Positions 1 through 15,041 of a stretch of 15,041 bases of DNA are shown piece by piece. Origin of the DNA: a virus (taxonomy: Duplodnaviria; Heunggongvirae; Uroviricota; Caudoviricetes); the IMG/VR virus record IMGVR_UViG_2579778989_000004, positions 1 through 15,041 of that record; one strand, 5' to 3'. Position 1 is the stretch's first letter, and each line of letters begins with the position of its first letter. Both the position numbers and the translations under genes were made by a program. The notes below the pieces were generated by a model. It had not been told where the DNA came from and ran no database searches. It saw only the letters and a program-made list of their open reading frames with translations.

Positions 1-672
1 AAACCCTCGCCCGGCGGCGACACTCCATCGGGGCCGTCTGATGGTGACACATCCGTTCGTACAGTCTCCCTGCTGCCGACAGCCGGAGAGGCTGCTGCGC
101 AGGGCTGGACCATCACCGGCGGCAGTGTTGCGCTGGAAGATGGTGTGTTTAAGGTTACCAAGCAGAGCAATAAAACTTGGTCCCTGATGCATCCGGTGGA
201 TGACGCAGTCTCCCTGCTGACACGGGGTGGCAGACTGAGCTGTAAGTTTCGACTGTCAGGCGCACTGACCAACAACCAGTTCGGTCTGGGAATTTATCTG
301 TATACCGATGTAGCGTTACCTGACGTCGTGGCGATGACCGGGACTGGTAACCCGTTCCTGATGTCGTTCTTCACCCAGACCACAGACGGCAAACTGAATC
401 TGATGCATCACAGGAAAGCAGGAAACACAAAGTTGGGCGAGTTCGGGAATTACAGTAACGACTGGCAGACGCTGGAGCTGGTGTTCACCGCCGGCAGTGC
501 CACGGTTACTCCGAAACTGAATGGAGTGGCTGGCCCGGCATTCCAGGTCATAAAAGACAGTCTGACACTGGGGCTGAATGCGCTGACGCTGACGGATATT
601 ACCAAAAATGCAGCGTATGGCGTTGAGATAGAAAGTCTGGTGCTGGAGATAAATGCACCAGCATCATCATAA
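1..672 (+). CDS. Partial CDS, 5' end outside the window (frame 1 is open from base 1; first ATG at 145). C-terminal ~223 residues of an unidentified protein, possibly a carbohydrate-binding domain of a larger enzyme. It sits in the moron position just upstream of the holin.
   Basis: Frame 1 has no stop from position 1 to the TAA at 670-672. The translation is not low-complexity. The first ~40 residues are Gly/Pro/Ser/Asp-rich and linker-like. It is not Q-like. Identity not recognised. Confidence 0.55.
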   Translation, partial: KPSPGGDTPSGPSDGDTSVRTVSLLPTAGEAAAQGWTITGGSVALEDGVFKVTKQSNKTWSLMHPVDDAVSLLTRGGRLSCKFRLSGALTNNQFGLGIYLYTDVALPDVVAMTGTGNPFLMSFFTQTTDGKLNLMHHRKAGNTKLGEFGNYSNDWQTLELVFTAGSATVTPKLNGVAGPAFQVIKDSLTLGLNALTLTDITKNAAYGVEIESLVLEINAPASS

Positions 673-757
673 AAAGTGAGCCAGTCAAATGGAAGGTATC
701 GTTAAACTCACCGGTAGTGTCAGTGGGTCGTCTGAGATGCCTGCATGAGTTATCAGA

Positions 758-788
758 GCCATCAGTACTTAACTGGTGGCTTTTTTTA
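758..788 (+). terminator. Rho-independent terminator-like hairpin between the upstream ORF and the holin gene.
   Basis: GCCATCAG (758-765), loop TACTTAA, CTGGTGGC (773-780) gives an 8-bp stem with one G-U pair, followed by TTTTTTT (781-787). Confidence 0.5.
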
Positions 789-822
789 TTGTTGTCAGCT
801 TCCGGATAACGGGAGACGGGGT

Positions 823-1038
823 ATGTACCAGATGGAAAAAATCACAACAGGTGTGTCATACACCACGTCAGCGGTGGGAACGGGCTACTGGTTCCTGCAG
901 TTGCTGGACAGGGTTTCCCCGTCTCAGTGGGCGGCAATAGGCGTGCTGGGGAGTCTGCTGTTTGGGCTGCTGACATATCTGACGAACCTGTATTTCAAAA
1001 TCAGAGAGGACCGTCGTAAGGCTGCACGGGGAGAGTAA
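823..1038 (+). CDS. S: Class II holin (pinholin) of the phage 21 S21 / E. coli EssD-EssQ family, 71 aa.
   Basis: The translation [71 protein letters not shown] matches the S21/EssD pinholin family from memory, with two TM segments and a charged C-terminus. GGAG-like RBS at 811-815. The longer track ORF from 745 is rejected as an upstream extension. Confidence 0.9.
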
Positions 1039-1042
1039 TTCA

Positions 1043-1357
1043 ATGACTCAAAACTATGAACTGATTGTGAAAGGGATCCGCAATTTTGAGAATAAAGTTA
1101 CGGTAACTTTAGCGTTACGGGACAAAAAACGCTTTGACGGTGAAATTTTTGACCTGGACATCTCGCTGGACCGTGTTGAAGGTGCCGCGCTGGAGTTTTA
1201 TGAGGCAGCAGCCAGAAGGAGCATCAGACAGGTCTTCATGGATGTTGCTGCCGGGTTATGTGAAGGGGACGAGCTGTTGCCAGAAACGCGCCCCTGTTCA
1301 GAGGCGCGGTATACCATAAAAATTAACAGTTCTGATAACTCGATTACGGGTTGTTAG
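1043..1357 (+). CDS. ydfR: Small protein of unknown function (104 aa) between holin and endolysin. Resembles YdfR (DUF1327) of the E. coli Qin prophage lysis region.
   Basis: Complete ORF with ATG 4 nt after the holin stop. The N-terminus MTQNYELIVKGIRNFENKVTVT...FDGEIFDLD...VEGAALEFYEAAARRS matches my recollection of YdfR. The holin, ydfR, lysozyme order is that of Qin. Confidence 0.6.
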   Translation: MTQNYELIVKGIRNFENKVTVTLALRDKKRFDGEIFDLDISLDRVEGAALEFYEAAARRSIRQVFMDVAAGLCEGDELLPETRPCSEARYTIKINSSDNSITGC

Positions 1358-1412
1358 CTTTTTGCAGTTGGCTTTCCAGTATCTTTCATTGGTAGCATCC
1401 TGATAAATATCC

Positions 1413-1946
1413 ATGAGCGCAAAAATCAAATACGGCCTGTCAGCTGCTGTTCTGGCGCTGATTGCTGCAGGCGCGTCTGCTCCTCAAATACTTGACCAGT
1501 TTCTGGATGAAAAAGAGGGTAACCACACTACGGCATACCGCGATGGTTCCGGTATATGGACCATCTGTCGTGGTGCCACAATGGTGGATGGTAAGCCCGT
1601 CATACCGGGAATGAAGCTGTCGAAGGAAAAATGCGACCAGGTTAACGCTATTGAACGTGATAAGGCGCTGGCATGGGTGGAGCGCAATATTAAAGTACCA
1701 CTGACCGAACCACAGAAAGCGGGTATAGCGTCATTCTGTCCCTATAACATTGGCCCCGGTAAGTGTTTCCCGTCGACGTTTTATAAGCGGCTGAATGCCG
1801 GTGATCGTAAGGGCGCATGCGAGGCGATTCGCTGGTGGATAAAAGATGGTGGGCGCGATTGCCGCATACGTTCAAATAACTGCTATGGACAGGTTATTCG
1901 TCGTGACCAGGAAAGCGCATTAGCCTGTTGGGGGATAGATCAGTGA
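1413..1946 (+). CDS. R: SAR endolysin, a GH24 lysozyme (phage 21 R21 / RrrD-RrrQ type), 177 aa.
   Basis: N-terminal weakly hydrophobic Gly/Ala-rich segment ([15 protein letters not shown]) typical of a signal-anchor-release domain. The E...D...T catalytic pattern ([16 protein letters not shown]) and C-terminal CWG motif match T4-lysozyme-like SAR endolysins. Follows a pinholin. Confidence 0.9.
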
Positions 1947-2401
1947 GCAGAGTCGCAGCGATTATTTATACTCTGGTTATCTGCACCATCGTCTGCCTGT
2001 CATGGGCTGTTAATCATTACCGCGATAACGCCATTACCTACAAAGCCCAGCGCGACAAAAATGCCAGAGAACTGAAGCTGGCGAACGTGGTAATTACTGA
2101 CATGCAGATGCGTCAGCGTGATGTAGCAGATCTCGACGCCAGATACACAAAGGAGCTTGCTGATGCTAACGCGACTATCGAAAGTCTTCGTGCTGATGTT
2201 TCTGCTGGGCGTAAGCGCCTGCAAGTCGCCGCCACCTGTGCAAAGTCAACGACCGGAGCCAGCAGCATGGGCGATGGAGAAAGCCCAAGACTTACAGCAG
2301 ATGCTGAACTCAATTATTACCGTCTCCGAAGTGGAATCGACAAGATAACCGCTCAGGTCAACTACCTGCAGGAGTACATCAGGACGCAGTGCTTAAAATA
2401 A
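1943..2401 (+). CDS. Rz: Rz inner-membrane spanin (i-spanin). The start is GTG at 1943, overlapping the endolysin TGA stop.
   Basis: The translation [62 protein letters not shown]... is near-identical to lambda Rz as I recall it. The GTG start is chosen over the track's TTG at 1928 by alignment to the lambda Rz N-terminus. Confidence 0.85.
2157..2348 (+). CDS. Rz1: Rz1 outer-membrane lipoprotein spanin (o-spanin), embedded in the +1 frame of Rz.
   Basis: 63-aa ORF lying wholly within Rz in a different frame. Signal peptide with lipobox LLGVSAC followed by a proline-rich segment ([13 protein letters not shown]), as in lambda Rz1. Confidence 0.75.
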
Positions 2402-2438
2402 TTTTAATTTCACTGAAATTTAATACGTGACTTTCAGG

Positions 2439-2469
2439 AAAATGCCTCGCAGATGCGGGGCATTTTTGT
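2439..2469. terminator. Strong intrinsic terminator after the lysis cassette, potentially bidirectional.
   Basis: AAAATGCCTCGC, loop AGAT, GCGGGGCATTTTTGT: a ~12-bp GC-rich stem with one G-U pair, an A-tract upstream and a T-tract downstream. Confidence 0.55.
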
Positions 2470-2760
2470 ACAGGTATTTCACCGCGCACCGCAGCGCACT
2501 CAACCACGTCGAACCAAACCCTTTGGAATGAGCCTTTGAGTAGTCAGTTAGTGCTGGTGAGCCTTGACGGGCTGATCTCCTATGCAGCAAAGGTTCATCT
2601 CAAAGTAAGACGAACGCTATGACAAACCAAGATTCTATAGACCTATCTGATCTTCGTGGAATGGTCAGTTTTCCAGACAAAAGGTAATCACCATAGTCGT
2701 ATGGCTATGAATCTTGTTGCTGCAGATAAGCATTTTGTGATTGAAGTGGTCAAATCTCTC

Positions 2761-2789
2761 AAATGCAGTAAAATGCAGTGCGCTATAAT
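2761..2789 (+). promoter_or_regulatory. Putative sigma70 promoter for the 206-aa gene, with a tandem 10-bp repeat in the -35/spacer region.
   Basis: Consensus -10 TATAAT at 2784-2789, 28 nt upstream of a strong AAGGAG SD (2807-2812) and the ATG at 2818. AAATGCAGTA and AAATGCAGTG are direct tandem repeats at 2761-2780. No convincing -35 hexamer was found. Confidence 0.35.
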
Positions 2790-2817
2790 TCAATAACGGA
2801 GGGAGTAAGGAGAAGTC

Positions 2818-3438
2818 ATGAAAGATCAAGATGTTAGGTTCGCGGTGCATCATAAGCTTTTGAAAGAATCGCATTTAGATCCAGACTGCCTTGTGGTCGA
2901 TGAATTTTCCATATCCCTTGGCGCCAGTAGAGCAGACATTGCTGTAATAAATGGTGTTATACACGGGTACGAGCTCAAAAGTGAATATGACTCTTTGGAG
3001 CGTTTGCCTCTTCAAATCAAGCATTATTCTTCTGTAATGGACAAGGTTACTCTTGTCGTAGCTGAGAAACACCTTGAGGGAGCATTAAAGTTAATCCCAG
3101 GTTGGTGGGGCGTTAAAACGGTTTCTGTTGGGCCAAAAGGCGCCATTCTTATAAAGCACATGCGTGGAGAAAAGCTTAATCGAAACCATGACACATTGAT
3201 GCTCGCTCAATTGCTTTGGAAAGATGAATGTATCGACGTACTTGAACGATGGGGCTATTCCAAAGGAATCAAAAGCAAGCCCCGATTTGAGTTATGGAAT
3301 ATTATTGCGGAAAATATTCCAATAGCGAATCTCAGGCCTGAAGTCAGAACAGCCTTAAAGAAACGCGTAGGCTGGAAAGTTAAGGCTTGGCAGGCTGAGT
3401 CTGCGCCAACCAATAAAGCTGTCTCACGACTAACGTAA
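2818..3438 (+). CDS. Hypothetical protein (206 aa) with an N-terminal PD-(D/E)xK-like nuclease motif. AT-rich accessory gene.
   Basis: Complete ORF with SD AAGGAG at 5-nt spacing. Residues D28-E29, D40 (RADIAVING) and E52-L-K54 (HGYELKSE) fit the hhhD-x(n)-hhExK pattern on predicted beta strands. GC content is visibly lower than in the flanking phage genes. Confidence 0.7.
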   Translation: MKDQDVRFAVHHKLLKESHLDPDCLVVDEFSISLGASRADIAVINGVIHGYELKSEYDSLERLPLQIKHYSSVMDKVTLVVAEKHLEGALKLIPGWWGVKTVSVGPKGAILIKHMRGEKLNRNHDTLMLAQLLWKDECIDVLERWGYSKGIKSKPRFELWNIIAENIPIANLRPEVRTALKKRVGWKVKAWQAESAPTNKAVSRLT

Positions 3439-4447
3439 TATGGTGCGTATGTGCAACTTTACGCCATTCTTTAGAGCCGCCAGATTTGTTAGCGCCTAAT
3501 GATCTTTGGTAAATGTAATCATCCCCCCAACTAAATTTGGAGCCAAAGACTTGATACTCTGGCGAACTAACAAGGGTAGTACATAAGTTTTTAGTTTGGC
3601 CCCATCCATTTCCTTTAACTGCGGTACCTTTTACAAAGATCCATGAGGTATCGTTCGAATATCTCACTGAGACATACTGAGACATGAAGCGTGGGTCTAC
3701 GCTCGTAATGGTAGAGCTAGCGGTGGGATAATCACTAAAACTTGGCGTTCTTCCATTGCTAAAATTCTGTACTACGTACATCCAAAGATCGTATTCATGG
3801 CGCGGAATATGATGAACTTGATGTTGCGGTATCCCTGCCTGTGATGCCGGGTATGCGGTTGAAGATAAAATCAAGTTTCTCCACGGAGCTTGGCCTGATA
3901 ATGTGTTGACCATGCTTAATGCTTGTTGTTTTAAACTATCAGTTGCGTTTTGAATATCTCCAAAATCAATGATTACATCAATTAAACTAGGATGAATATT
4001 TAAGTGGTTAACCAGACTTGTGAATTGGTGCCATGTCTGGGGGGTGATAGACATAGCGAGCCCATTGATTAAGTTGCGTTGAACAGCATGTATATAGTTT
4101 GTTGAATATGCGGGAGAAACAACAGGGATAATTTCCTTACCATTTACTCTAGCATCTTGGATACACATATCTAGAGGATGATGGCGGCTCGAACCATGTT
4201 TATCTAAATATTTAACATCCAGCAAAACAGGACGATTGGCTTTCCAGGATGCCGCAAGGTTAATACCGAAGTCAGATAAGTAAGAACTCAAACTCTTCTT
4301 GTAGCATTCGTTTTCATAATCCCAGTCTATGTCTGGAATGGTAATGATCGGAGTAAAACCAGAGAGCGTAGTTTGATCTAAAAGCATCAGAGATTCATAT
4401 TCAGCAGGCTTCCATTTCAGCTGTGGATAATATTGATGTTGACTCAT
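3380..4447 (-). CDS. Hypothetical protein (355 aa), family not recognised. Convergent with the 206-aa gene and overlapping its 3' end by ~59 bp.
   Basis: Long minus-strand ORF in AT-rich DNA, where spurious long ORFs are unlikely. ATG at 4447-4445 with SD AAGGAG (complement of 4453-4458) at 5-nt spacing. No Walker A or other motif I can assign. Confidence 0.7.
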   Translation of the reverse strand: MSQHQYYPQLKWKPAEYESLMLLDQTTLSGFTPIITIPDIDWDYENECYKKSLSSYLSDFGINLAASWKANRPVLLDVKYLDKHGSSRHHPLDMCIQDARVNGKEIIPVVSPAYSTNYIHAVQRNLINGLAMSITPQTWHQFTSLVNHLNIHPSLIDVIIDFGDIQNATDSLKQQALSMVNTLSGQAPWRNLILSSTAYPASQAGIPQHQVHHIPRHEYDLWMYVVQNFSNGRTPSFSDYPTASSTITSVDPRFMSQYVSVRYSNDTSWIFVKGTAVKGNGWGQTKNLCTTLVSSPEYQVFGSKFSWGDDYIYQRSLGANKSGGSKEWRKVAHTHHITLVVRQLYWLAQTQPAKP

Positions 4448-4639
4448 TAAAACTCCTTAAAATCTTTACTTATCCTAAGTATAGTGTTATGGCGTAACGC
4501 CAATTGTTTTTATACACTTGAAAACATTGGGAAAAGTTGAGCTATATCTAAATTTACAAAATTGGATGTTATAGAAATCGAGGTTTCAACTAGGCATGGA
4601 ACTGCAAAATTTTTAATGCCTGCACGCGAAAGTCGTTGG

Positions 4640-4850
4640 CGGGTCCTTTCCGGTGATCCAGATCGTTACGGGGCGGCGACCTCGCGGGTTTTCGCTATTT
4701 ATGAAAATTTTTAGGGAAAAATCAGATCCGTTCTTCTTCTTTTTAACTGATTGATTATCAATAGAATTTTAAAAATATAAAAGGATCTGACAAAGGCTGT
4801 TTTTGTTAGAAAACGCCATTTTCAGATCCTTTCTGGTTCCCGGGGGAGTG
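4640..4850. other. cos: cos site (cosQ, cosN, cosB) of a lambda-type packaging system. The 12-nt cohesive-end sequence GGGCGGCGACCT is at 4671-4682.
   Basis: GTCGTTGGCGGGTCCTTTCCGGTGATCC...GTTACGGGGCGGCGACCTCGCGGGTTTTCGCTATTTATGAAAATTTT matches the lambda right-end/left-end junction as I recall it. It lies immediately upstream of a Nu1 homologue. Downstream cosB-like repeats are described in findings. Confidence 0.85.
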
Positions 4851-4851
4851 T

Positions 4852-5400
4852 ATGAACGTCAATAAGAAAAAACTGGCCGATATTTTTGGCGTTGATGTCA
4901 GGACCATCACCGCCTGGCAGAGTCAGGGGTTACCACTAGTTTCTGGTGGAGGGAAAGGGACTGAATCAGTTTTTGATACAACTGCTGCCATTCAGTGGTA
5001 TGCGCAGAGGGAAGCTGATATTGAAAACGAAAAACTCCGTAAAGAGATCGAGGATTTGAGGGCTGCCAGCGAATCAGACCTTCAGCCCGGCACCATTGAT
5101 TACGAACGTTACCGACTGACGAAGGCACAGGCCGATGCACAGGAGCTGAAAAATGCTCGTGAGGAAGGCCTTGTCCTCGAGACGGAGTTATTTACCTACA
5201 TCTTTCAGCGAGTGGCACAGAATATATCAGGGATCCTTGTCCGTGTCCCTCAGACACTGCAGCGTAAATACCCTGATATATCACCCGTACATCTTGATGC
5301 TGTGAAAACTGAAATCGCGAAAGCATCCGATGTGGCTTCTGAAGCCGGTGAGAATGTGCGCAGGTGGATTGATGATTTCAGACGAACTGAGGGCGGCTAA
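4852..5400 (+). CDS. nu1: Terminase small subunit (lambda gpNu1 homologue), 182 aa.
   Basis: [29 protein letters not shown]...[58 protein letters not shown] is closely similar to lambda Nu1 (N-terminal winged-HTH region) from memory. Confidence 0.95.
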
Positions 5401-7300
5401 TTCTGCAGGAGCGATAGCAACCGGCCTCCTTGCGCTAAAAATTCCTGTCCCTCTGACGACAGTTCAGTGGGCAGATCGACATTATTACCTTCCGAAAGAG
5501 TCATCTTACACCCCGGGGCGGTGGGAAACACTGCCGTTTCAGGTTGCCATCATGAACAGCATGGGGAATGACCGGATCCGCACTGTTAATCTGATTAAAT
5601 CTGCCCGTGTTGGTTATACAAAGATGTTGCTGGGAGTGGAGGCTTATTTTATTGAGCATAAATCACGCAACAGCCTTCTTTTCCAGCCCACGGATTCTGC
5701 TGCTGAAGATTTTATGAAATCTCATGTGGAACCCACGATCAGGGATGTGCCGGTTTTACTCGATCTTGCACCGTGGTTTGGGCGTAAACATCGTGATAAT
5801 ACCCTCACGCTGAAACGTTTTTCATCGGGCGTGGGCTTCTGGTGCCTGGGCGGGGCTGCCGCTAAAAACTACCGTGAAAAATCCGTGGACGTGGTCTGCT
5901 ATGACGAACTTTCCTCGTTCGAACCGGATGTCGAAAAAGAGGGTTCGCCAACCCTGCTTGGGGATAAACGTATTGAGGGCTCTGTATGGCCCAAATCCAT
6001 TCGCGGCTCGACGCCTAAAATCAAAGGCACCTGCCAGATCGAAAAAGCGGCCAACGAGTCGGCGCATTTCATGCGTTTTTATGTGCCCTGCCCACACTGT
6101 GGGGAGGAGCAGTATCTGAAATTTGGCGATGAATCCACGCCTTTTGGCCTTAAATGGGAGAAGGACAGCCCCGAAAGCGTTTTCTACCTCTGTGAACATC
6201 ATGGCTGCGTGATCCATCAGTCTGAGCTTGACCAGAGCAACGGGCGGTGGATCTGTGAAAACACGGGGATGTGGACCCGTGACGGTCTGACGTTTTTCAG
6301 CGCCGCGGATAATGAAATTCCGCCGCCGCGCTCCATCACGTTCCATATCTGGACGGCGTACAGTCCGTTCACCACCTGGGTACAGATAGTCTATGACTGG
6401 CTGGATGCACTGAAAGATCCCAACGGCCTGAAAACCTTTGTGAACACCACGCTGGGCGAGACCTGGGAAGAGGCCGTGGGCGAAAAACTCGATCACCAGG
6501 TACTGATGGATAAGGTTGTTCATTACACGGCGGCGGTGCCTGCCCGGGTGGTTTATCTGACGGCGGGCATTGACTCGCAGCGAAACCGTTTTGAGATGTA
6601 TGTCTGGGGATGGGCTCCGGGAGAGGAAGCCTTTCTGGTGGATAAAATCATCATTATGGGACGTCCCGATGAGGAAGAGACGCTGTTACGTGTGGATGCG
6701 GCGATCAACAAAAAATACCGCCATGCGGATGGCACCGAAATGACCATTTCCCGTGTCTGCTGGGACACCGGGGGGATCGATGGTGAAATCGTCTACCAGA
6801 GGTCAAAAAAACACGGTGTTTTCCGTGTGCTGCCGGTAAAAGGCGCATCTGTCTATGGCAAGCCGGTGATCACCATGCCGAAAACCCGCAATCAGCGGGG
6901 CGTGTATCTGTGTGAAGTGGGGACGGACACCGCAAAAGAAATTCTCTATGCCCGTATGAAAGCCGATCCCACGTCTGCGGATGAAGCCACGTCGTATGCC
7001 ATCCGTTTTCCTGATGATCCGGAGATTTTTTCGCAGACAGAGGCGCAGCAACTGGTCGCGGAAGAGCTTGTGGAGAAGTGGGAAAAAGGAAAGATGCGTC
7101 TGCTGTGGGATAACAAAAAGCGGCGTAACGAAGCGCTGGACTGCCTGGTGTATGCCTATGCGGCATTACGTGTGTCCGTGCAACGCTGGCAGCTTGATCT
7201 GGCTGTACTGGCAAAATCCCGGGAAGAAGAGACGACCCGGCCAACCCTTAAAGAACTGGCAGCGAAGCTGTCCGGAGGAGTGAATGGTTACAGTCGCTGA
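5372..7300 (+). CDS. A: Terminase large subunit (lambda gpA homologue), ~642 aa.
   Basis: Strong similarity to lambda gpA throughout (e.g. [60 protein letters not shown]). The ATG at 5372 is preceded by AGGTGGA and gives an N-terminal length matching lambda A. The track's longer start at 5330 lies inside Nu1. Confidence 0.95.
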
Positions 7301-7490
7301 ACTGCAGGCGCTGCGTCAGGCGCGCCTTGATTTATTAACCGGTAAACGGGTGGTGTCTGTCCAGAAAGATGGTCGCAGAATTGAATATACGGCAGCTTCT
7401 CTGGATGAGCTTAACCGGGCGATCAATGATGCGGAGTCGGTACTGGGGACAACCCGCCGTCGCCGTCGTCCGCTGGGAGTGAGGTTATGA
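7284..7490 (+). CDS. W: Head completion / head-tail joining protein (lambda gpW homologue), 68 aa.
   Basis: Same length as lambda W, with conserved LTGKRVVSVQKDGRRIEYTAAS and a C-terminal RRRRP motif. Start overlaps the end of A. Confidence 0.9.
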   Translation: MVTVAELQALRQARLDLLTGKRVVSVQKDGRRIEYTAASLDELNRAINDAESVLGTTRRRRRPLGVRL

Positions 7491-9079
7491 AACGAACGCC
7501 TGTCCTGATTGATGTGAACGGCGTTCCGCTTCGGGAGAGTCTCAGCTACAACGGGGGCGGCGCAGGATTTGGCGGGCAAATGGCGGAGTGGTTGCCACCG
7601 GCGCAGAGTGCCGATGCGGCCCTGCTACCCGCGTTGCGTCTGGGGAATGCCCGTGCAGATGATCTGGTGCGCAATAACGGAATAGCGGCTAATGCGGTGG
7701 CCCTGCATAAGGATCACATTGTCGGGCATATGTTTCTGATCAGCTACCGTCCGAACTGGCGCTGGCTGGGGATGCGGGAGACCGCAGCAAAAAGTTTTGT
7801 CGATGAGGTGGAGGCGGCCTGGTCGGAATACGCAGAAGGGATGTTTGGTGAGATCGACGTGGAAGGGAAACGCACGTTCACGGAATTTATCCGTGAAGGT
7901 GTGGGCGTTCATGCGTTTAACGGCGAAATCTTTGTGCAGCCGGTCTGGGATACGGAAACCACGCAGTTGTTCCGTACGCGTTTTAAAGCCGTGAGTCCGA
8001 AACGGGTGGACACGCCTGGACACGGTATGGGGAACCGTTTTCTGCGGGCCGGTGTGGAGGTTGATCGATATGGCCGTGCCGTTGCGTACCATATCTGTGA
8101 GGATGATTTTCCTTTCTCTGGTAGTGGACGATGGGAACGGATCCCGCGTGAACTACCCACCGGGCGTCCGGCCATGCTGCATATTTTCGAGCCGGTGGAG
8201 GACGGGCAGACCCGTGGGGCTAATCAGTTTTACAGCGTCATGGAACGGCTGAAGATGCTCGATTCCCTGCAGGCAACACAGCTTCAGTCGGCCATAGTGA
8301 AGGCGATGTATGCAGCGACGATTGAAAGTGACCTTGATACCGAAAAGGCCTTTGAATATATCGCCGGTGCGCCGCAGGGGCAGAAGGATAATCCGCTTAT
8401 TAATATTCTGGATAAGTTCTCCACCTGGTATGACACGAATCACGTGACGCTGGGCGGTGTCAAAATTCCGCACCTTTTCCCCGGTGATGATCTGAAACTT
8501 CAGACCGCGCAGGATTCAGACAATGGATTTTCGGCGCTTGAACAGGCGCTGCTGCGGTATATCGCCGCCGGTCTTGGCGTTTCCTACGAACAGTTGTCCC
8601 GTGATTACTCGAAGGTCAGTTACTCAAGTGCCCGCGCATCCGCCAATGAGTCGTGGCGCTATTTTATGGGGCGGCGAAAATTTATTGCGTCCCGGCTGGC
8701 CACGCAGATGTTTTCCTGCTGGCTGGAAGAGGCACTTCTTCGGGGGATTATTCGTCCGCCACGGGCACGTTTTGATTTTTATCAGGCGCGATCAGCCTGG
8801 TCACGGGCTGAGTGGATTGGAGCCGGAAGAATGGCCATTGACGGGCTCAAGGAGGTTCAGGAATCAGTGATGCGCATTGAGGCCGGACTGAGCACGTATG
8901 AGAAAGAGCTGGCGCTGATGGGCGAGGATTATCAGGACATTTTCCGCCAGCAGGTCAGGGAATCTGCAGAGCGGGAAAAAGCCGGACTCTCACGTCCGGT
9001 GTGGATAGCGCAGGCGTATCAGCAGCAGATAGCGGAGAGTCGCAGGCCGGAAGAGGAGACAACACCACGTGAGACGTAA
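7487..9079 (+). CDS. B: Portal protein (lambda gpB homologue), 530 aa.
   Basis: Long conserved blocks recalled from lambda gpB (NARADDLVRNNG, FEPVEDGQTRGAN, QSAIVKAMYAATIES, LLRYIAAGLGVSYEQLSR, RMAIDGLKEVQE). ATGA start/stop overlap with W. Confidence 0.95.
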   Translation: MKRTPVLIDVNGVPLRESLSYNGGGAGFGGQMAEWLPPAQSADAALLPALRLGNARADDLVRNNGIAANAVALHKDHIVGHMFLISYRPNWRWLGMRETAAKSFVDEVEAAWSEYAEGMFGEIDVEGKRTFTEFIREGVGVHAFNGEIFVQPVWDTETTQLFRTRFKAVSPKRVDTPGHGMGNRFLRAGVEVDRYGRAVAYHICEDDFPFSGSGRWERIPRELPTGRPAMLHIFEPVEDGQTRGANQFYSVMERLKMLDSLQATQLQSAIVKAMYAATIESDLDTEKAFEYIAGAPQGQKDNPLINILDKFSTWYDTNHVTLGGVKIPHLFPGDDLKLQTAQDSDNGFSALEQALLRYIAAGLGVSYEQLSRDYSKVSYSSARASANESWRYFMGRRKFIASRLATQMFSCWLEEALLRGIIRPPRARFDFYQARSAWSRAEWIGAGRMAIDGLKEVQESVMRIEAGLSTYEKELALMGEDYQDIFRQQVRESAEREKAGLSRPVWIAQAYQQQIAESRRPEEETTPRET

Positions 9080-10574
9080 TCTTTCACACATTATTGCCGC
9101 AGCATTCAATGAACCGCTGCTTCTGGAGCCCGCCTATGCGCGGGTTTTCTTTTGCGCGCTCGGGCGCGAGATGGGGGCAGCAAGTCTTTCGGTACCGCAA
9201 CAGCAGGTACAGCTTGATGCTCCCGGAATGCTGGCTGAAACGGACGAGTACATGGCCGGAGGTAAACGACCGGCCCGTGTTTACCGGGTGGTGAACGGTA
9301 TTGCGGTACTGCCGGTGAGCGGCACGCTGGTGCACCGGCTGGGGGGGATGCGGCCATTTTCCGGAATGACTGGCTATGACGGCATTGTCGCCTGTCTTCA
9401 GCAGGCAATGGCAGATAGCCAGGTGCGGGGCATACTGCTGGACATTGACAGTCCGGGCGGGCAGGCCGCCGGCGCGTTTGACTGCGCTGACATGATTTAC
9501 CGCCTCCGTCAGCAGAAGCCGGTCTGGGCACTGTGCAATGACACGGCCTGTTCTGCAGCCATGCTGCTGGCGTCGGCCTGCTCCCGACGGCTGGTTACCC
9601 AGACATCCCGTATCGGCTCCATTGGCGTGATGATGAGCCATGTCAGCTATGCCGGTCATCTGGCGCAGGCCGGTGTGGATATCACGCTGATTTATGCCGG
9701 GGCGCACAAGGTGGATGGCAATCAGTTTGAAGCGTTGCCGGCAGAGGTTCGCCAGGATATGCAGCAGCGGATTGATGCGGCGCACCGGATGTTTGCCGAA
9801 AAAGTGGCGATGTATACCGGGTTGTCTGTGGATGCGGTCACGGGAACAGAGGCCGCCGTTTTTGAAGGTCAGTCCGGCATTGAGGCCGGGCTGGCGGATG
9901 AATTAATCAATGCGTCGGATGCCATCAGTGTGATGGCCACGGCGCTGAACAGTAATGTCAGAGGAGGCACTATGCCGCAATTAACTGCAACGGAAGCCGC
10001 CGTGCAGGAGAACCAGCGAGTGATGGGGATCCTGACATGCCAGGAAGCGAAAGGACGTGAACAGCTTGCCACGATGCTGGCAGGGCAACAGGGCATGAGC
10101 GTTGAACAGGCCCGGGCGATTCTGGCCGCGGCGGCACCGCAGCAGCCGGTGGCATCCGCGCAGAGTGAAGCCGATCGCATTATGGCGTGTGAAGAAGCGA
10201 ACGGTCGTGAACAACTGGCAGCAACGCTGGCGGCGATGCCGGAGATGACGGTGGAAAAAGCCCGCCCGATCCTGGCGGCTGCACCACTGGCGGATGCCGG
10301 GCCCTCACTTCGTGATCAGATCATGGCCCTGGATGAGGCAAAAGGGGCAGAAGCGCAGGCTGAAAAACTGGCGGCCTGCCCGGGAATGACCGTGGAGAAC
10401 GCCCGGGCTGTGCTGGCTGCGGGATCAGGTAAGGCCGAACCGGTCTCTGCATCCACAGCCGCCATGTTTGAACATTTCATGGCGAACCATTCACCGGCAG
10501 CGGTCCAGGGGGGCGTGTCACAGGCGTCAGAAGACGGTGATGCGGACGTGAAAATGCTCATGGCCATGCCATGA
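9069..10574 (+). CDS. C: Prohead protease / minor capsid protein C (lambda gpC homologue, S49/ClpP-like) with a C-terminal scaffold region, 501 aa.
   Basis: The N-terminal two-thirds is protease-like (VLPVSGTLVHR, GILLDIDSPGG, SAAMLLASAC). The C-terminal third is Ala/Glu/Gln-rich with three internal repeats. Start overlaps the end of B. Confidence 0.9.
   Translation: MRRNLSHIIAAAFNEPLLLEPAYARVFFCALGREMGAASLSVPQQQVQLDAPGMLAETDEYMAGGKRPARVYRVVNGIAVLPVSGTLVHRLGGMRPFSGMTGYDGIVACLQQAMADSQVRGILLDIDSPGGQAAGAFDCADMIYRLRQQKPVWALCNDTACSAAMLLASACSRRLVTQTSRIGSIGVMMSHVSYAGHLAQAGVDITLIYAGAHKVDGNQFEALPAEVRQDMQQRIDAAHRMFAEKVAMYTGLSVDAVTGTEAAVFEGQSGIEAGLADELINASDAISVMATALNSNVRGGTMPQLTATEAAVQENQRVMGILTCQEAKGREQLATMLAGQQGMSVEQARAILAAAAPQQPVASAQSEADRIMACEEANGREQLAATLAAMPEMTVEKARPILAAAPLADAGPSLRDQIMALDEAKGAEAQAEKLAACPGMTVENARAVLAAGSGKAEPVSASTAAMFEHFMANHSPAAVQGGVSQASEDGDADVKMLMAMP
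9972..10574 (+). CDS. nu3: Nested in-frame scaffold protein (lambda Nu3-like), translated from an internal start within C.
   Basis: In-frame ATG at 9972 preceded by a strong internal SD GAGGAGG (9961-9967) at 4-nt spacing. Lambda expresses Nu3 the same way, from the 3' part of C. Confidence 0.6.
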   Translation: MPQLTATEAAVQENQRVMGILTCQEAKGREQLATMLAGQQGMSVEQARAILAAAAPQQPVASAQSEADRIMACEEANGREQLAATLAAMPEMTVEKARPILAAAPLADAGPSLRDQIMALDEAKGAEAQAEKLAACPGMTVENARAVLAAGSGKAEPVSASTAAMFEHFMANHSPAAVQGGVSQASEDGDADVKMLMAMP

Positions 10575-10610
10575 AGTCAGTGCTGACCATCAATATGAGG
10601 TTTTAACAAA

Positions 10611-10958
10611 ATGGTGACGAAAACCATCACTGAACAGCGTGCGGAAGTACGTATTTTTGCCGGTAATGATCCGGCTCATACCGCCACAGGCAGCAGCGGG
10701 ATTTCTTCTGCAACACCGGCTCTGACGCCCCTGATGCTGGATGAAGCCACCGGGAAACTGGTGGTCTGGGACGGACAGAAAGCCGGTAGTGCGGTTGGCA
10801 TACTGGTACTGCCGCTTGAAGGCACAGAGACGGTGCTGACCTATTACAAATCGGGGACCTTTGCGACGGAGGCAATCCGCTGGCCTGACAGTGTGGATGA
10901 ACACAAAAAGGCAAATGCCTTTGCCGGCACAGCCCTGAGTCACGCGGCGCTGCCGTAA
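10611..10958 (+). CDS. D: Head decoration protein (lambda gpD homologue), 115 aa.
   Basis: DPAHTAT, TPLMLD, KLVVWDG, AVGIL, YKSGTF and AFAGTA match lambda gpD from memory. Confidence 0.9.
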   Translation: MVTKTITEQRAEVRIFAGNDPAHTATGSSGISSATPALTPLMLDEATGKLVVWDGQKAGSAVGILVLPLEGTETVLTYYKSGTFATEAIRWPDSVDEHKKANAFAGTALSHAALP

Positions 10959-11015
10959 CACGTTATCAGGCCACCGCGTTGACCTGACTGATTTCTTAAT
11001 GAAAGGAACTGATTT

Positions 11016-12044
11016 ATGGGATTGTTTACGACCCGCCAGTTGCTCGGTTATACCGAACAAAAAGTTAAATTTCGTGCGCTGTTTCTGGAACTGTTTTTCC
11101 GCCGTACGGTGAATTTCCACACCGAAGAGGTGATGCTGGACAAAATTACCGGAAAAACGCCGGTGGCGGCCTATGTCTCCCCGGTCGTTGAAGGAAAAGT
11201 GCTGCGTCATCGTGGGGGTGAAACCCGCGTGTTACGTCCGGGCTACGTCAAGCCGAAACACGAATTTAATTACCAGCAGGCGGTTGAACGCCTTCCCGGT
11301 GAAGATCCGGCTCAGCTGAACGACCCGGCCTACCGTCGTCTGCGTATCATCACTGATAACCTCAAACAGGAAGAGCACGCTATTGTGCAGGTGGAAGAAA
11401 TGCAGGCGGTGAATGCCGTGCTGTATGGCAAATATACGATGGAAGGAGACCAGTTCGAGAAAATTGAAGTCGATTTTGGCCGATCGACGAAGAATAACAT
11501 CATACAGGGTAGCGGTAAGGAGTGGTCAAAACAGGATCGTGACACGTTCGACCCGACATATGATATCGACCTTTTCTGTGATCAGGCCAGTGGTCTTGTG
11601 AATATTGCCATTATGGACGGTACCGTCTGGCGTCTGCTGAATGGCTTTAAGCTTTTCCGCGAAAAACTGGATACCCGTCGCGGTTCAAATTCACAACTCG
11701 AAACGGCAGTGAAAGATCTGGGCGCAGTGGTATCCTTCAAGGGGTATTACGGCGATCTGGCCATTGTGGTAGCGAAAACGTCTTATGTGGCAGAGGACGG
11801 TACCGAAAAACGTTATCTGCCGGAGGGCACGCTGGTGCTGGGGAATACGGCAGCAGAGGGGATTCGTTGCTATGGAGCCATTAAGGATGCACAGGCGTTG
11901 TCCGAAGGAGTGGTGGCTTCTTCCCGTTACCCGAAACACTGGTTGACCGTGGGCGATCCGTCCTGTGAATTCACCATGACGCAGTCCGCGCCGCTGATGG
12001 TGCTGCCGGATCCGGATGAGTTTGTGGTGGTGCAGGTGAAATAA
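11016..12044 (+). CDS. E: Major capsid protein (lambda gpE homologue), 342 aa.
   Basis: Extensive similarity to lambda gpE (PGYVKPKHE, DPAYRRLRII, VEEMQAVNAVLYGKYTM, KLDTRRGSNS, LETAVKDLG, TMTQSAPLMVLPDPDEFV). RBS AAGGA upstream. Confidence 0.95.
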   Translation: MGLFTTRQLLGYTEQKVKFRALFLELFFRRTVNFHTEEVMLDKITGKTPVAAYVSPVVEGKVLRHRGGETRVLRPGYVKPKHEFNYQQAVERLPGEDPAQLNDPAYRRLRIITDNLKQEEHAIVQVEEMQAVNAVLYGKYTMEGDQFEKIEVDFGRSTKNNIIQGSGKEWSKQDRDTFDPTYDIDLFCDQASGLVNIAIMDGTVWRLLNGFKLFREKLDTRRGSNSQLETAVKDLGAVVSFKGYYGDLAIVVAKTSYVAEDGTEKRYLPEGTLVLGNTAAEGIRCYGAIKDAQALSEGVVASSRYPKHWLTVGDPSCEFTMTQSAPLMVLPDPDEFVVVQVK

Positions 12045-12052
12045 TCCGTGAG

Positions 12053-12080
12053 CGGGGGCGAAATGCCCCCGTGTTTTTTT
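12053..12080 (+). terminator. Intrinsic terminator-like hairpin immediately downstream of the major capsid gene.
   Basis: CGGGGGC (12053-12059), loop GAAAT, GCCCCCG (12065-12071): a perfect 7-bp GC stem followed by TGTTTTTTT (12072-12080). Confidence 0.5.
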
Positions 12081-12095
12081 CACAGGGAGCTGGAT

Positions 12096-12464
12096 ATGGC
12101 AACAAAAGAAGAAAATCAGAAACGTCTTCGTGAACTGGCTGGTCTGCTGGGGCGCGAGGCGGATATGTCGGGGAGTGCTGCGGATATCGCACAGCGTGTG
12201 GCAGAGTGGGAAGAGGAGGTTTGCGCCTCGAAAAATGAAATCGCAGATGTTGATGATACCGTTCATGAGCAGGCATGCAGGCACACCGGTGAGGATGACG
12301 TTGGTATTCTGGAACGTATCAGGCTTCTGAAGTGTTTTTACCTGTGCGGTGTTGACGATGAAACAGGTGAGCCTGTTGAGCATGTTGATGCTGGCAGAGT
12401 AATTCTGATGCCCCCCTCAGTGGCAAAAGACATGGTCAGGAGCGGAATGGCCGTTTATGCATGA
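12096..12464 (+). CDS. FI: DNA packaging / head assembly protein (lambda gpFI homologue), ~122 aa.
   Basis: Position between E and FII. The start is set at ATG 12096 with SD GGGAG (12085-12089), so the gene follows the terminator hairpin; the track's longer start at 12048 would overlap it. Acidic protein, as FI. Direct sequence similarity is only moderate. Confidence 0.7.
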   Translation: MATKEENQKRLRELAGLLGREADMSGSAADIAQRVAEWEEEVCASKNEIADVDDTVHEQACRHTGEDDVGILERIRLLKCFYLCGVDDETGEPVEHVDAGRVILMPPSVAKDMVRSGMAVYA

Positions 12465-12810
12465 TTTTGAGAATTCCTTTGATGCTGCCCTTGCCGGGGT
12501 GGACAGAACGATTGTTGAAGTGATGGGGCTCTGTGCGCAGTTCACCTCGGGGGCACAGTGTGGCAGCGAAGTTCAGGGGGTTTTTGACGATCCGGAGTCG
12601 CTGGGGTTTGCCGGTAGCGGGGTCCGTATTGAAGGAAGCAGCCCGTCATTATTTGTGCGGATGGATACGGTTCGTGCCGTGCGGCGTGGTGACACGCTGA
12701 CCATTAATGGTGAGACATTCTGGGTGGATCGTGTTTCTCCGGATGACGGGGGCAGCTGTTATCTCTGGCTCAACCGTGGGCAACCACCCGCAGTTAACCG
12801 GCGACGATAA
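12457..12810 (+). CDS. FII: Head-tail connector protein (lambda gpFII homologue), 117 aa.
   Basis: Same length as lambda FII, with conserved GVFDDPE, VRIEGSSPSLFVR, RRGDTLTI and a C-terminal FWVDRVSPDDGGSCYLWL...PPAVNRRR. ATGA overlap with FI. Confidence 0.95.
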   Translation: MHDFENSFDAALAGVDRTIVEVMGLCAQFTSGAQCGSEVQGVFDDPESLGFAGSGVRIEGSSPSLFVRMDTVRAVRRGDTLTINGETFWVDRVSPDDGGSCYLWLNRGQPPAVNRRR

Positions 12811-12824
12811 ACGCAGGGTGAATT

Positions 12825-13484
12825 ATGGCGATAAAAGGGCTTGATCAGGCGATTGACAATCTGAGCCGGGTTCGTAAAAACGCCATTCCGGCTGCTTCTG
12901 CAATGACCATTAACCGCGTGGCCACAACGGCGATTAATCAGTCTTCGTCACAGGTTGCCCGGGAAACCAGGGTGAGACGGAAACTGGTAAAGGAACGGTC
13001 CAGACTGAAACGGGCGACGGTCAGAAATCCGAATGCCAGAATTATCGTTAACCGCGGTGATCTCCCTGTGATTAAGCTGGGGATCAGAATGCTGGGGCGT
13101 CGTCCGAACAGCATACTCAAAGCCGGTCAGCATCGTTATCAGCGGGCATTTATCCAGCGATTAAATAATGGGCGCTGGCATGTTATGCAACGTCTTCCCC
13201 AGGCCAGATATGAGGAGGGCAATGACGACAAGGGAAGGAAAAAGCGTAATCGCCTTCCCATTCAGGTGGTGAAAATCCCGATGGCGGCCCCACTGAAACA
13301 GGCATTTGATGAGAATGTTGACCGTATCCGGCGTGAACGCCTGCCTAAAGAACTGGCAACTGAAGACGCAGACGTTATATCTGGTGAAAAACGTCTGCGT
13401 CTTAACTACAACGGCATAATTGCATTGTTAGTCGAGGGCTTTAAAACACTTCGTCATGAGATTAAAGAACTCCGGGAGAAGTAA
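12825..13484 (+). CDS. Z: Tail assembly protein Z homologue (lambda gpZ) with a divergent, longer C-terminus; possibly a chimeric 3' end.
   Basis: The N-terminus MAIKGL(D/E)QA..NLSR...AMTINRVA...SQVARET.VRRKLVKER.RLKRATV.NP.ARI.VNRGDLPVIKLG and the segment AFIQ.L.NGRWHVMQR...VVKIPMA.PL...RIRRERLPKEL match lambda Z. The last ~42 residues (ATEDADVISGEKRLRLNYNGIIALLVEGFKTLRHEIKELREK) do not. Confidence 0.85.
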   Translation: MAIKGLDQAIDNLSRVRKNAIPAASAMTINRVATTAINQSSSQVARETRVRRKLVKERSRLKRATVRNPNARIIVNRGDLPVIKLGIRMLGRRPNSILKAGQHRYQRAFIQRLNNGRWHVMQRLPQARYEEGNDDKGRKKRNRLPIQVVKIPMAAPLKQAFDENVDRIRRERLPKELATEDADVISGEKRLRLNYNGIIALLVEGFKTLRHEIKELREK

Positions 13485-13569
13485 ACGACAGCTGTTGTAG
13501 TTTCTGGTTTCTACTGAATTTAAATTGTGGGGTGACACTCACCCCACGCATTCAGAAGGGGGAGATGAG

Positions 13570-13893
13570 ATGGGGGTAACATCGGGATGGGTAGGCTCTT
13601 CGGCTAAGAGCGAAACAGGTGAGCAGTGGATGGGAGCCGCCGGAACCAAACTGGGACTGAGTAAACCTTTTATGATGAGCCAAATGGTTGGGCGAACTAT
13701 GGGCTGTAAAATTGCAACTGAGTACTATAAATGGAAATCCTCTGACAAGGTTGATAACTGGGGCGCAGTTGGCGCTGACTGGCCTTTAGAAGAAAAAAGT
13801 AAAGGTACAATTACAAACGCCGCAAGCTGCGGATCAGGGAGGCTGGTAGGGGCTGTCGTTACACTTTCTCACTTTTTGACGAACTCTACGTAA
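13570..13893 (+). CDS. Small Gly/Trp-rich hypothetical protein (~107 aa from ATG 13570). Its stop codon lies in the first bases of the IS66-family terminus, so the gene may be truncated.
   Basis: ORF with SD-like AAGGGGGAG upstream of ATG 13570 (the track's TTG start is at 13525). The TAA at 13891-13893 is part of the GTAAGCG at 13890-13896. No recognisable family. Confidence 0.4.
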   Translation: MGVTSGWVGSSAKSETGEQWMGAAGTKLGLSKPFMMSQMVGRTMGCKIATEYYKWKSSDKVDNWGAVGADWPLEEKSKGTITNAASCGSGRLVGAVVTLSHFLTNST

Positions 13894-15041
13894 GCGACTC
13901 GTCAGAACCGTATTGATATTTACTGAGAGCTCAGATCAACTTTCCAGGGCAACAGATCGCGTACCCGGTTTGCCGGCCAGTCCTGGATATGTTCAATGAC
14001 GTAACGCAGCCACTTTTCTGGCTCCACATTGTTCAGACGGCATGTGCCGATCAGCGAGTACAACACCGCCGCATGTTCACCACCGCTGTCGGAACCCGCG
14101 AACATCCAGTTTTTCCGGCCTACGGCCACTCCCCGTAAGGCGTTCTCTGCGATGTTGTTGTCGATTTCCACCCAGCCATTACTGCAGTACACGTTCAGTG
14201 CATCCCACTGTTTCAGCAGGTATGCGAACGCTTTTGCCGTATCTGAGTGACGCGACAGTGTTTTCATCTGTTGCTGTATCCAGTCATACAGTGACTGCAT
14301 CAGTGGCGCGGCTCTGGCTTTTCTTGCCGCCAGACGCTGTTCTGCTGAACAGCCCCGGACCTCTGCCTCGATGGCATACAGTTCACCGATACGCTGCAGG
14401 GCTTCCGTGGTGATGTAGGTGGGCGCTCTTGCATGCACATCGTGGATTTTTCTCCGGGCATGAGCCATACACGCGGCTTCCGTTATTCTGCCGGATTCGT
14501 ATAACGCCCGGTAACCACCGTAAGCATCGGCCTGAAGCACACCGCTGTAACCGGCCAGGTGATTTTGTGGATGGATACCTTTCCGGTCCGGACTGTACGC
14601 GAACCAGACCGCCGGGGGCATCTGTGAACCGGCGTTACGGTCATCACGGACGTAGACCCACAGCCGGGCTGTCCGGGTTTTACCGCTGCCCGGCTCCTGG
14701 ACCGGGACGGGGATATCATCAGCATGGACTTTACCGGGCATCAGCACATACTGGCGCAGGACGTCATACAGCGGCTCCAGCAGTTCAGCAACAGCACCTG
14801 TCCAGCGCCCCAGTGTGGCACGGCTCAGCTCCACTCCCTGACGACGGTATATTTCTGACTGGCGGTATAACGGCAGATGGTCTGCATATTTCCCGGTGAC
14901 AACATGGGCCAGAAGCCCCGCTCCGGCATAACTGCGTGCAATGGGTTTTGAAGGTACTGGTGCCTGCACGATATGGTCGCACCGGCAACAGGCCTGTTTC
15001 GGACGTTGTGTTTCGATAACCTTAAAGGCGCTGCTGATAAG
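13890..15041 (-). mobile_element. IS66-family insertion sequence, partial (extends beyond the window end), inverted relative to the phage genes.
   Basis: GTAAGCG at 13890-13896 is typical of IS66-family terminal inverted repeats. It lies 30 bp outside the stop of a minus-strand IS66-type transposase gene. Confidence 0.7.
13920..15041 (-). CDS. tnpC: IS66-family transposase (TnpC-type), C-terminal ~374 codons; the N-terminus is outside the window.
   Basis: The minus-strand frame stays open past the track's GTG start at 14969 through to base 15041. The translation (…[28 protein letters not shown]…, …[36 protein letters not shown]…) is characteristic of IS66 TnpC. Cys-rich CCRC segment upstream. 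Confidence 0.85.

Follow-up and report, generated by a model that had tools for sequence, protein, structure and literature searches.

A convergent, overlapping pair of sce7726-family and Beta-family genes between Rz and cos of a lambda-like Escherichia coli prophage: a candidate anti-phage module

In the lambda-like Escherichia coli prophage represented by IMG/VR record IMGVR_UViG_2579778989_000004, the slot between the lysis genes and the cos site is occupied by two AT-rich genes. The record was analysed from position 1 to 15,041, and this whole 15,041 nt stretch is here called the window. A first-pass annotation, made from the sequence alone, had set the two genes apart as a candidate defence or conversion module and had found neither protein assignable to a named family with certainty. 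What do these genes encode, do they belong together, and what might they do for the prophage or its host? We find that they encode a sce7726-family protein (gene A), related to the cII product of satellite P4, and a Beta-family protein (gene B), that sce7726 genes almost always have a convergent Beta gene as partner, and that the pair on balance probably serves in anti-phage defence. The 206-amino-acid (aa) plus-strand open reading frame (ORF) and the 355-aa minus-strand ORF had been read correctly, together with their convergence, an overlap of about 59 bp, an AAGGAG before each gene and a TATAAT (2784–2789) before the plus-strand gene. The features of the pair are as follows.

2818–3438, plus strand: gene A, sce7726-family, P4 cII-like protein of 206 aa (profile matches)
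3380–4447, minus strand: gene B, Beta-family protein (PF14350) of 355 aa (profile matches)
3380–3438: 59-bp overlap of the 3′ ends of the convergent genes A and B (ORF coordinates)
2807–2812, plus strand: ribosome-binding site of A, AAGGAG, 5 nt before the ATG of A
4453–4458, minus strand: ribosome-binding site of B, AAGGAG, 5 nt before the ATG of B
2747–2789, plus strand: conserved, putative promoter/operator region of A (promoter scan and sequence)
4490–4553, minus strand: upstream block of B, conserved in five genera, putative promoter

Both proteins can in fact be named. On identical DNA, RefSeq calls A a 'sce7726 family protein' and B a 'beta family protein', and the record of phage Rac-SA53 labels its copies 'CII phage-like protein' and 'beta'. 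The match of A to the NCBIfam sce7726 family NF033832 (2.3e-54, 184.1 bits against a cut-off of 70) covers model positions 1–182 of 184, and A also matches the PADLOC model 'cll', which represents P4 cII, at 3.8e-31. It further matches phrog_984, a group of unknown function. B matches the Pfam family Beta_protein, PF14350, over its full length (8.3e-56, 190 bits against a cut-off of 27). Both of these families had been suggested on the strength of protein size. A third suggestion, that the longer protein might belong to the sce7725 family, was ruled out: B has no match to the NCBIfam sce7725 model at E≤1, and nine other Beta proteins paired with sce7726 genes likewise have none. As A and B have strong profile matches, hundreds of homologues each and RefSeq names, they are real genes rather than chance ORFs. 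The gene families are thus already named and the pair has already been noticed by annotators, so neither is categorically new. A precomputed Pfam family, PF26915, lies on homologues of A, so that sce7726 proteins seem to have been given an entry in Pfam only very recently.

When a profile of A was used to scan one genome per species, 64 loci were returned, and their neighbouring genes were clustered and profile-scanned. These loci span Enterobacterales, Vibrionaceae, Burkholderiales, Myxococcota, Desulfovibrionales, Acidobacteriota, Bacteroidota, Ignavibacteriota, Firmicutes and many metagenome-assembled genomes (MAGs) of Patescibacteria. A Beta-family ORF is immediately convergent to the sce7726 gene in 59 of the 64, and of the five loci without one, three are at contig ends, one has a truncated A and only one (L009) is truly without B. 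The pairwise identities of the A and B proteins co-vary, with a Pearson coefficient of 0.84 over 53 loci that was reached by none of 999 Mantel permutations, and B evolves faster than A. The pairing is near-obligate, and the co-occurrence of the two genes across genomes, which the first-pass annotation had left to be checked, is borne out. The exceptional locus is from Xenorhabdus koppenhoeferi (L009, 6001–7810), where an intact sce7726 gene has no beta and is instead followed by Ser/Thr-kinase-like and PP2C-phosphatase-like ORFs. The sce7726 family is large: its profile matched 1318 clusters at E≤1e-30 and 3437 at E≤1e-10 among 1.84 billion representative proteins, these being public proteins clustered at 50% identity. 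A scan of viral contigs with a Beta alignment returned only close relatives.

The N-terminal domain of A is a predicted PD-(D/E)xK nuclease. The predicted fold has the alpha-beta-beta-beta-alpha-beta core by which this superfamily is recognized, and the candidate catalytic residues (E29, D40 and E52-x-K54, with Q66xxxY70) form the classical E…D…ExK motif and a RecB-like QxxxY, which are both kept in P4 cII. Across the A family E29, R38, D40, E52, K54, S55, D58, R62 and Q66 are invariant. Residues 126–186 form a four-helix C-terminal domain with weak SAP-like similarity, and this small helical domain is probably DNA-binding. The tail beyond it (188–206) is predicted to be disordered and exists because the stop codon of close relatives has been lost here. 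In structure, A comes closest to an MmcB-like protein of unknown function, and a homologue of A is called 'DNA repair protein MmcB-like' by one database source. A search of Protein Data Bank (PDB) sequences found no entry related to A or to B.

The AlphaFold2 model of B, which has a predicted local distance difference test score of 92 and a predicted template-modelling (TM) score of 0.91, is a divergent TIM barrel of alternating beta strands and alpha helices with a long C-terminal helical extension. Foldseek searches with this model returned TrpA-like barrels at TM-scores of about 0.4–0.5, the top matches being generic barrels, and neither Foldseek nor the PDB sequence search pointed to a close solved relative or to a specific enzyme family. 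Many polar residues of B are invariant (E16, K51, D77, H90, D157, R190, R216, D239, R253, R262, H335 and H336), and their conservation suggests an enzyme active site or a ligand-binding site.

The overlap of the 3′ ends is not peculiar to the window. It is kept across phyla: 55 of 60 pairs have it, most often at a length of 50 bp, which is also the median, and the overlapping DNA encodes the conserved C-terminal helix of Beta on one strand and the variable tail of the nuclease on the other. Neither A nor B has a terminator of its own between the two genes. The conserved overlap may be a control element that works through antisense RNA or through transcription collision.

Each gene also has conserved DNA at its 5′ side. 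Upstream of A, the elements TGGTCA (2747–2752) and TAAAAT (2769–2774) are separated by 16 nt, and the TATAAT is separate from them. Two tandem copies of AAATGCAGT, at 2761–2769 and 2771–2779, lie directly upstream of this TATAAT and may be an operator. The approximately 90 bp upstream of A that includes the AAATGCAGT repeats and the TATAAT is conserved in copies of the pair from Edwardsiella, Klebsiella, Pantoea and Pectobacterium. The upstream block of B contains a −10-like hexamer, TATAAA, at 4514–4509 and a motif, TTAGAT.TAGCTCAA...TTTTCAG..GTATAAAA, that is conserved in five genera approximately 60–110 nt upstream of B. Beyond these blocks the DNA upstream of A and of B is not conserved. 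As the blocks are conserved across five genera, both genes carry their own regulatory DNA along with them. A palindrome, TGGCGTAACGCCA, at 4490–4502 would fall in the leader of B; it was considered as a terminator and rejected, as its fold is no better than that of shuffled sequence.

Relatives of one or both proteins are found in two defence systems that have been catalogued separately. E. coli that carries the Gop-beta-cII system under its native promoter is protected from lambda and P1 (Rousset et al. 2022, PMC9122126), and a passage of the same article that cites Ghisotti 1990 describes gop as toxic without beta (PMC9122126). The phage accessory gene orf184 triggers the toxicity and cell killing of Gop-beta-cII (bioRxiv 10.1101/2023.04.06.535777). 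In PD-lambda-2, an Xre-peptidase is toxic and is neutralized by a HigB-like protein, while the beta-like third component, C, is dispensable for neutralization and needed for defence against lambda vir (Vassallo et al. 2022, PMC9519451).

Comparison with the P4 locus revealed several points of likeness. The Beta proteins of P4 and the window are of equal length, 355 aa, and share 22% identity (BLASTP 2e-7), and A is 27% identical (3e-19) to the sce7726-family cII protein. In both elements the two genes are convergent and directly beside cos, in a mobile-element hotspot, with the 5′ end of beta toward cos. The order from cos in P4 is gop (133 aa, 402 bp), beta and the convergent cII, and the window has the same order minus gop. 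No ORF of at least 20 aa is present on the minus strand in the 223 bp between the start of B (4447) and cos (4671), a space too short for gop, and on both sides of the pair the ORFs down to 20 aa include no hidden third gene. Among related loci that were scanned, the gop model matched only P4. Thus the likeness to the P4 system that the first-pass annotation had suspected extends to both proteins, which match the PADLOC models, but not to a complete system. The two loci differ further in that A is 58 aa shorter than P4 cII, in that P4 beta and cII are separated by a 27-bp gap bearing a terminator (an outlier among the pairs) where the window genes overlap, and in that the carrier here is a lambda-like prophage rather than a satellite.

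B is closer to PD-lambda-2 than to P4. Its matches to the PADLOC PD-Lambda-2_C models PDLC03984 (4.1e-32) and PDLC03983 (1.7e-25) are stronger than that to the P4 'beta' model (3.3e-10), and it is 21% identical (8e-17) to the C protein of an E. coli PD-lambda-2-type locus (L067). The other PD-lambda-2 components are missing. There is no ORF for the HigB-like component A in or beside the island, the PD-Lambda-2_A model matching L019 and others and nothing here, and the Xre-HTH/ImmA-IrrE peptidase, component B, is absent from the ORF list and the profile scans of the window. A profile search for the Xre-peptidase matched 5476 proteins, and none of the 120 entries listed was from E. coli. Lacking gop, HigB and the Xre-peptidase, the window pair fits neither Gop-beta-cII nor PD-lambda-2.

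Across the 64 loci, three layouts could be distinguished. In the first, of PD-lambda-2 type, genes for a HigB_toxin-family protein and an Xre-HTH/Peptidase_M78 protein lie directly upstream of beta and match PADLOC PD-Lambda-2_A (1e-41) and PD-Lambda-2_B (2e-150), respectively. This layout is found in 27 of the 64 loci, outside Enterobacterales, and its operons (for example L019, 6001–9122, L024 and L026) end in a fourth gene, a convergent and overlapping sce7726 gene, which the three-gene model of PADLOC leaves out. The second is the P4 type, with gop upstream of beta. The third is the bare pair, seen in approximately 28 loci that have no recurrent third gene and, in most cases, more than 100 bp of non-coding DNA upstream of beta. 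The window and every example from Enterobacterales, Vibrio and Firmicutes are in this group. As approximately 28 loci have no conserved third gene, the two-gene unit must be viable.

Likeness to other known systems is more limited. The nuclease fold is the extent of the homology to Hachiman (HamA/HamB), Can2/Card1 and Cap4; the partner here is a TIM barrel and not a helicase, CARF or SAVED sensor, and the genes are convergent and overlapping instead of forming an operon. A type II toxin–antitoxin pair was ruled out on layout, the genes being convergent with separate promoters and not co-transcribed. The bor gene of lambda and Iss-type morons resemble the pair in lying after Rz and before cos and in being non-essential, AT-rich inserts that bring promoters of their own. 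In sequence, Bor/Iss, a single lipoprotein gene that gives serum resistance, is unrelated to the nuclease and TIM-barrel module described here.

The pair is found in elements that are otherwise unrelated. In Klebsiella pneumoniae ATCC 13883 a pair with 77–85% identity to that of the window is in the equivalent slot of a non-homologous prophage (L004, 4133–11451), in the order holin, endolysin, spanin, pair, HNH, TerS and TerL. The pair moves between phage types yet lands at the junction of the lysis and packaging genes. In Rac-SA53 it lies between IS1 and hok/mok, and in Gordonia phage Powerball between HicAB and the integrase gene. It is also present in Gordonia phage DumpsterDude and Mycolicibacterium phage Mycofy1, and in Myxococcus phage Mx4 a homologue of A alone was detected. 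The neighbours of bare pairs in chromosomes are of three kinds: genes of mobile elements (primase, Toprim, DUF927, GPA and portal genes), defence genes (BrxL of BREX, a type I restriction-modification (R-M) S subunit, MADS, MzaA, DRT, Aga nuclease, PDC-S11 and PDC-S73) and housekeeping border genes. This mix is suggestive of defence islands.

Because of the homology to two validated systems and this genomic context, we lean, without great confidence, towards a defence function, in which the pair would be a prophage-borne anti-phage module. It would be a self-contained two-gene 'moron' that most likely shields the lysogen from other phages. We are less confident of how the roles of effector and sensor are divided between the two proteins. 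The predicted nuclease A would be the effector, as the only plausible one. As PD-lambda-2 cannot defend without its Beta protein and P4 beta counteracts the toxin of its system, B would be a sensor or regulator that holds A silent until an infecting phage provides a cue, and as the product of orf184 triggers Gop-beta-cII, that cue could be a phage protein. Since the genes converge with overlapping 3′ ends, transcription of either one must continue into the other in antisense, and such run-through would probably couple and balance the expression of A and B. As A is co-directional with the late operon, Q-antiterminated late transcription should, at induction, read through the terminator downstream of Rz, raise A and collide with transcription of B.

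Several observations weigh against this reading. PD-lambda-2-type loci in complete E. coli genomes, found by distant blastn, have SIR2 or DUF6119 convergent to beta, and not sce7726 (L067, 952–3676; L068, 631–3677). The PD-lambda-2 clone from ECOR42 that was tested reaches only 396 bp past its C (beta) gene. From these loci and the short clone it follows that Beta can work without the nuclease. The SIR2 gene beside the E. coli beta matches the PADLOC candidate PDC-S25. The gene convergent to beta may be a swappable effector (sce7726, SIR2 or DUF6119), and simple adjacency within an island would explain the SIR2 case equally well. The toxins that have been demonstrated in the two relatives, Gop and the Xre-peptidase, are both missing here. 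Intact A is kept in L009, L030, L037, L042 and L050, where B is missing, truncated or split, which argues against A as a lethal toxin strictly needing B; MAG assembly errors could be behind some of these cases. With its TIM barrel and invariant polar residues, Beta looks enzymatic in the model, and this is left unexplained if it is purely a sensor. Literature searches on the two families brought up only incidental mentions in genome annotations or unrelated articles, and nothing on the function of cII/sce7726, the biochemistry of Beta or the two-gene form. Finally, P4 cII was reportedly named for a clear-plaque phenotype, which would point to the life cycle of the element itself.

A role in that life cycle belongs to the first of three alternatives, that the module serves the prophage. 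The pair could be for addiction or stabilization, it could modulate lysogeny or induction, as the P4 name cII would suggest, or it could be an MmcB-like repair or processing nuclease with an auxiliary enzyme. The MmcB-like structural match and the homologue bearing that name favour such a role, as do the presence of the pair always on mobile elements or islands and the orientation of A along the late operon, by which Q-antiterminated transcription should increase A and work against B once the prophage is induced. We nevertheless consider it unlikely, as defence cargo typically has such a slot and such neighbours and both characterized systems built on this core are anti-phage. Moreover, the pair is also in chromosomal islands without phage genes, in Patescibacteria MAGs and in Bacteroidota, and is not bound to the biology of one phage.

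A second alternative, that the pair resembles an R-M system, would have Beta modify DNA, a nucleotide or a cofactor and the sce7726 nuclease cut DNA lacking (or carrying) the mark, with the convergent layout timing the two activities as in many type II R-M systems. This would give the barrel of Beta an enzymatic role, but the best structural matches of B are generic barrels with no specific structural or sequence link to a DNA-modifying family, Beta needs no such nuclease to work in PD-lambda-2 or against gop, and Gop-beta-cII acts as triggered cell death and not as restriction. We regard it as improbable. Least credible by far is that the pair is an inert relic of Gop-beta-cII or PD-lambda-2 that has lost its toxin gene and persists by hitch-hiking: gop, HigB and the Xre-peptidase are absent and the surrounding prophage contains insertion sequences (IS), but both ORFs are intact with all of the family-invariant residues, the promoters and ribosome-binding sites are conserved across genera, the bare pair recurs in approximately 28 independent species including Firmicutes and in actinophages, and identities of only 19–27% to the P4 proteins indicate an old lineage rather than a recent deletion product.

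Beyond the defence function of the window pair, a broader proposal can be made more tentatively. The convergent, overlapping Beta/sce7726 pair may be an ancient and autonomous two-gene immune core, distributed from Patescibacteria MAGs to E. coli and actinophages, with Gop-beta-cII and PD-lambda-2 representing this core with different add-on cassettes of toxin or regulator. The antisense overlap would be part of the control logic, and the bare pair would be a working but so far unrecognized defence system whose sensor or enzyme is of a new type. We think this possible, though less likely than the defence reading. As far as we found, no publication has recognized the overlapping beta/sce7726 pair as a core that Gop-beta-cII shares with most PD-lambda-2-type loci. 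Should the bare pair prove protective on its own, the two systems would merge around one core. A role would then be assigned to the cII/sce7726 nuclease, and a gap in defence-finding tools would be revealed: the PADLOC three-gene PD-lambda-2 set omits sce7726, and such tools probably miss the pair because the full gene set of neither named system is present. The Beta family is without a solved structure or known chemistry, and the minimal two-gene context is the simplest place to learn what Beta senses or catalyses. The convergent overlap of approximately 50 bp across phyla likewise offers an unusually clean setting in which to study how antisense RNA or colliding transcription might control an immune module.

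The pair lies on an island with defined borders. The window is filled by the late region of the prophage, with the lysis genes (holin, YdfR-like protein, lysozyme and Rz) at 745–2401 and, to the right of cos, the packaging and head genes for a Nu1-like small terminase, large terminase, portal, S49 protease, decoration protein and capsid. The features around the pair are listed here.

2623–4632: island-specific DNA, 2010 bp, 40.6% GC (homology break against island-free prophages)
4671–4682, plus strand: cosN (GGGCGGCGACCT), lambda-type packaging site, backbone DNA at the right side of the slot (exact match)
approximately 2437–2468, plus strand: intrinsic-terminator-like hairpin and U run after Rz, backbone DNA (RNA fold)
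2536–2622, plus strand: 5′ remnant of rha, approximately 28 codons, encoding a Rha-family regulator, cut by the left junction of the island with the remainder replaced by the insert
4852–5400: Nu1-like terminase small subunit gene

Homology to E. coli prophages that have the same flanks and no island stops at 2622 and resumes at 4633, which leaves 38 bp between the right edge of the island (4632) and cosN. The stretch from 2402 to 2622 is backbone that is common to P22-like and other lambdoid phages. Window positions 1929–2622 are 88.8% identical to 1501–2192 of another E. coli prophage (L112), in which an intact Rha-family coding sequence begins at 2120, and the rha remnant is 87% identical to P22 rha. 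The hairpin after Rz is strong (−20.2 kcal/mol, z −6.4, with none of 200 shuffles as good) and is followed by the U run. The first-pass annotation was right about the hairpin, which belongs, however, to the backbone DNA outside the island. Its estimate of roughly 40% GC for the island was accurate (41.5% for 2402–4660 and 40.6% for the island proper), while the 55–60% given for the flanks was too high on the left side, the lysis genes having 49.8% and the packaging and head genes 52–55%.

In other E. coli prophages the slot between Rz and cos contains Iss/Bor, TonB-family, Rha, YlcI/YnfO, PerC, DUF1398 or transposase genes, and it is a variable cargo hotspot. The horizontal acquisition proposed earlier is upheld by the breaks in homology at 2622 and 4633, the low GC content and the variable occupants of the slot, so the island is a 2-kb insert that came by horizontal transfer into a slot that varies among prophages. 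Of 5426 complete E. coli genomes, 126 (about 2%) contain the same 2.26 kb, intact and at least 99% identical, and in 99 of these 126 the flanks from lysozyme to Nu1 are also the same.

Away from the island, two further features lie towards the ends of the window. The tail module is disrupted at 12825–14969, where gpZ (12825–13484) has a foreign C-terminus and is followed by an ORF for a Gp38_N adhesin fragment (13525–13893) and, on the minus strand, an IS66-family transposase gene (13920–14969; Pfam 1e-103). In the otherwise identical prophage of strain E7476, the U, V, G, T and tape-measure genes come next. Upstream of the holin gene, the window has a DUF6645 ORF at 145–672; in E7476 (L001, 2789–4271) the copy has been truncated by insertion of IS1A, and a hokD toxin gene is found further upstream of it.

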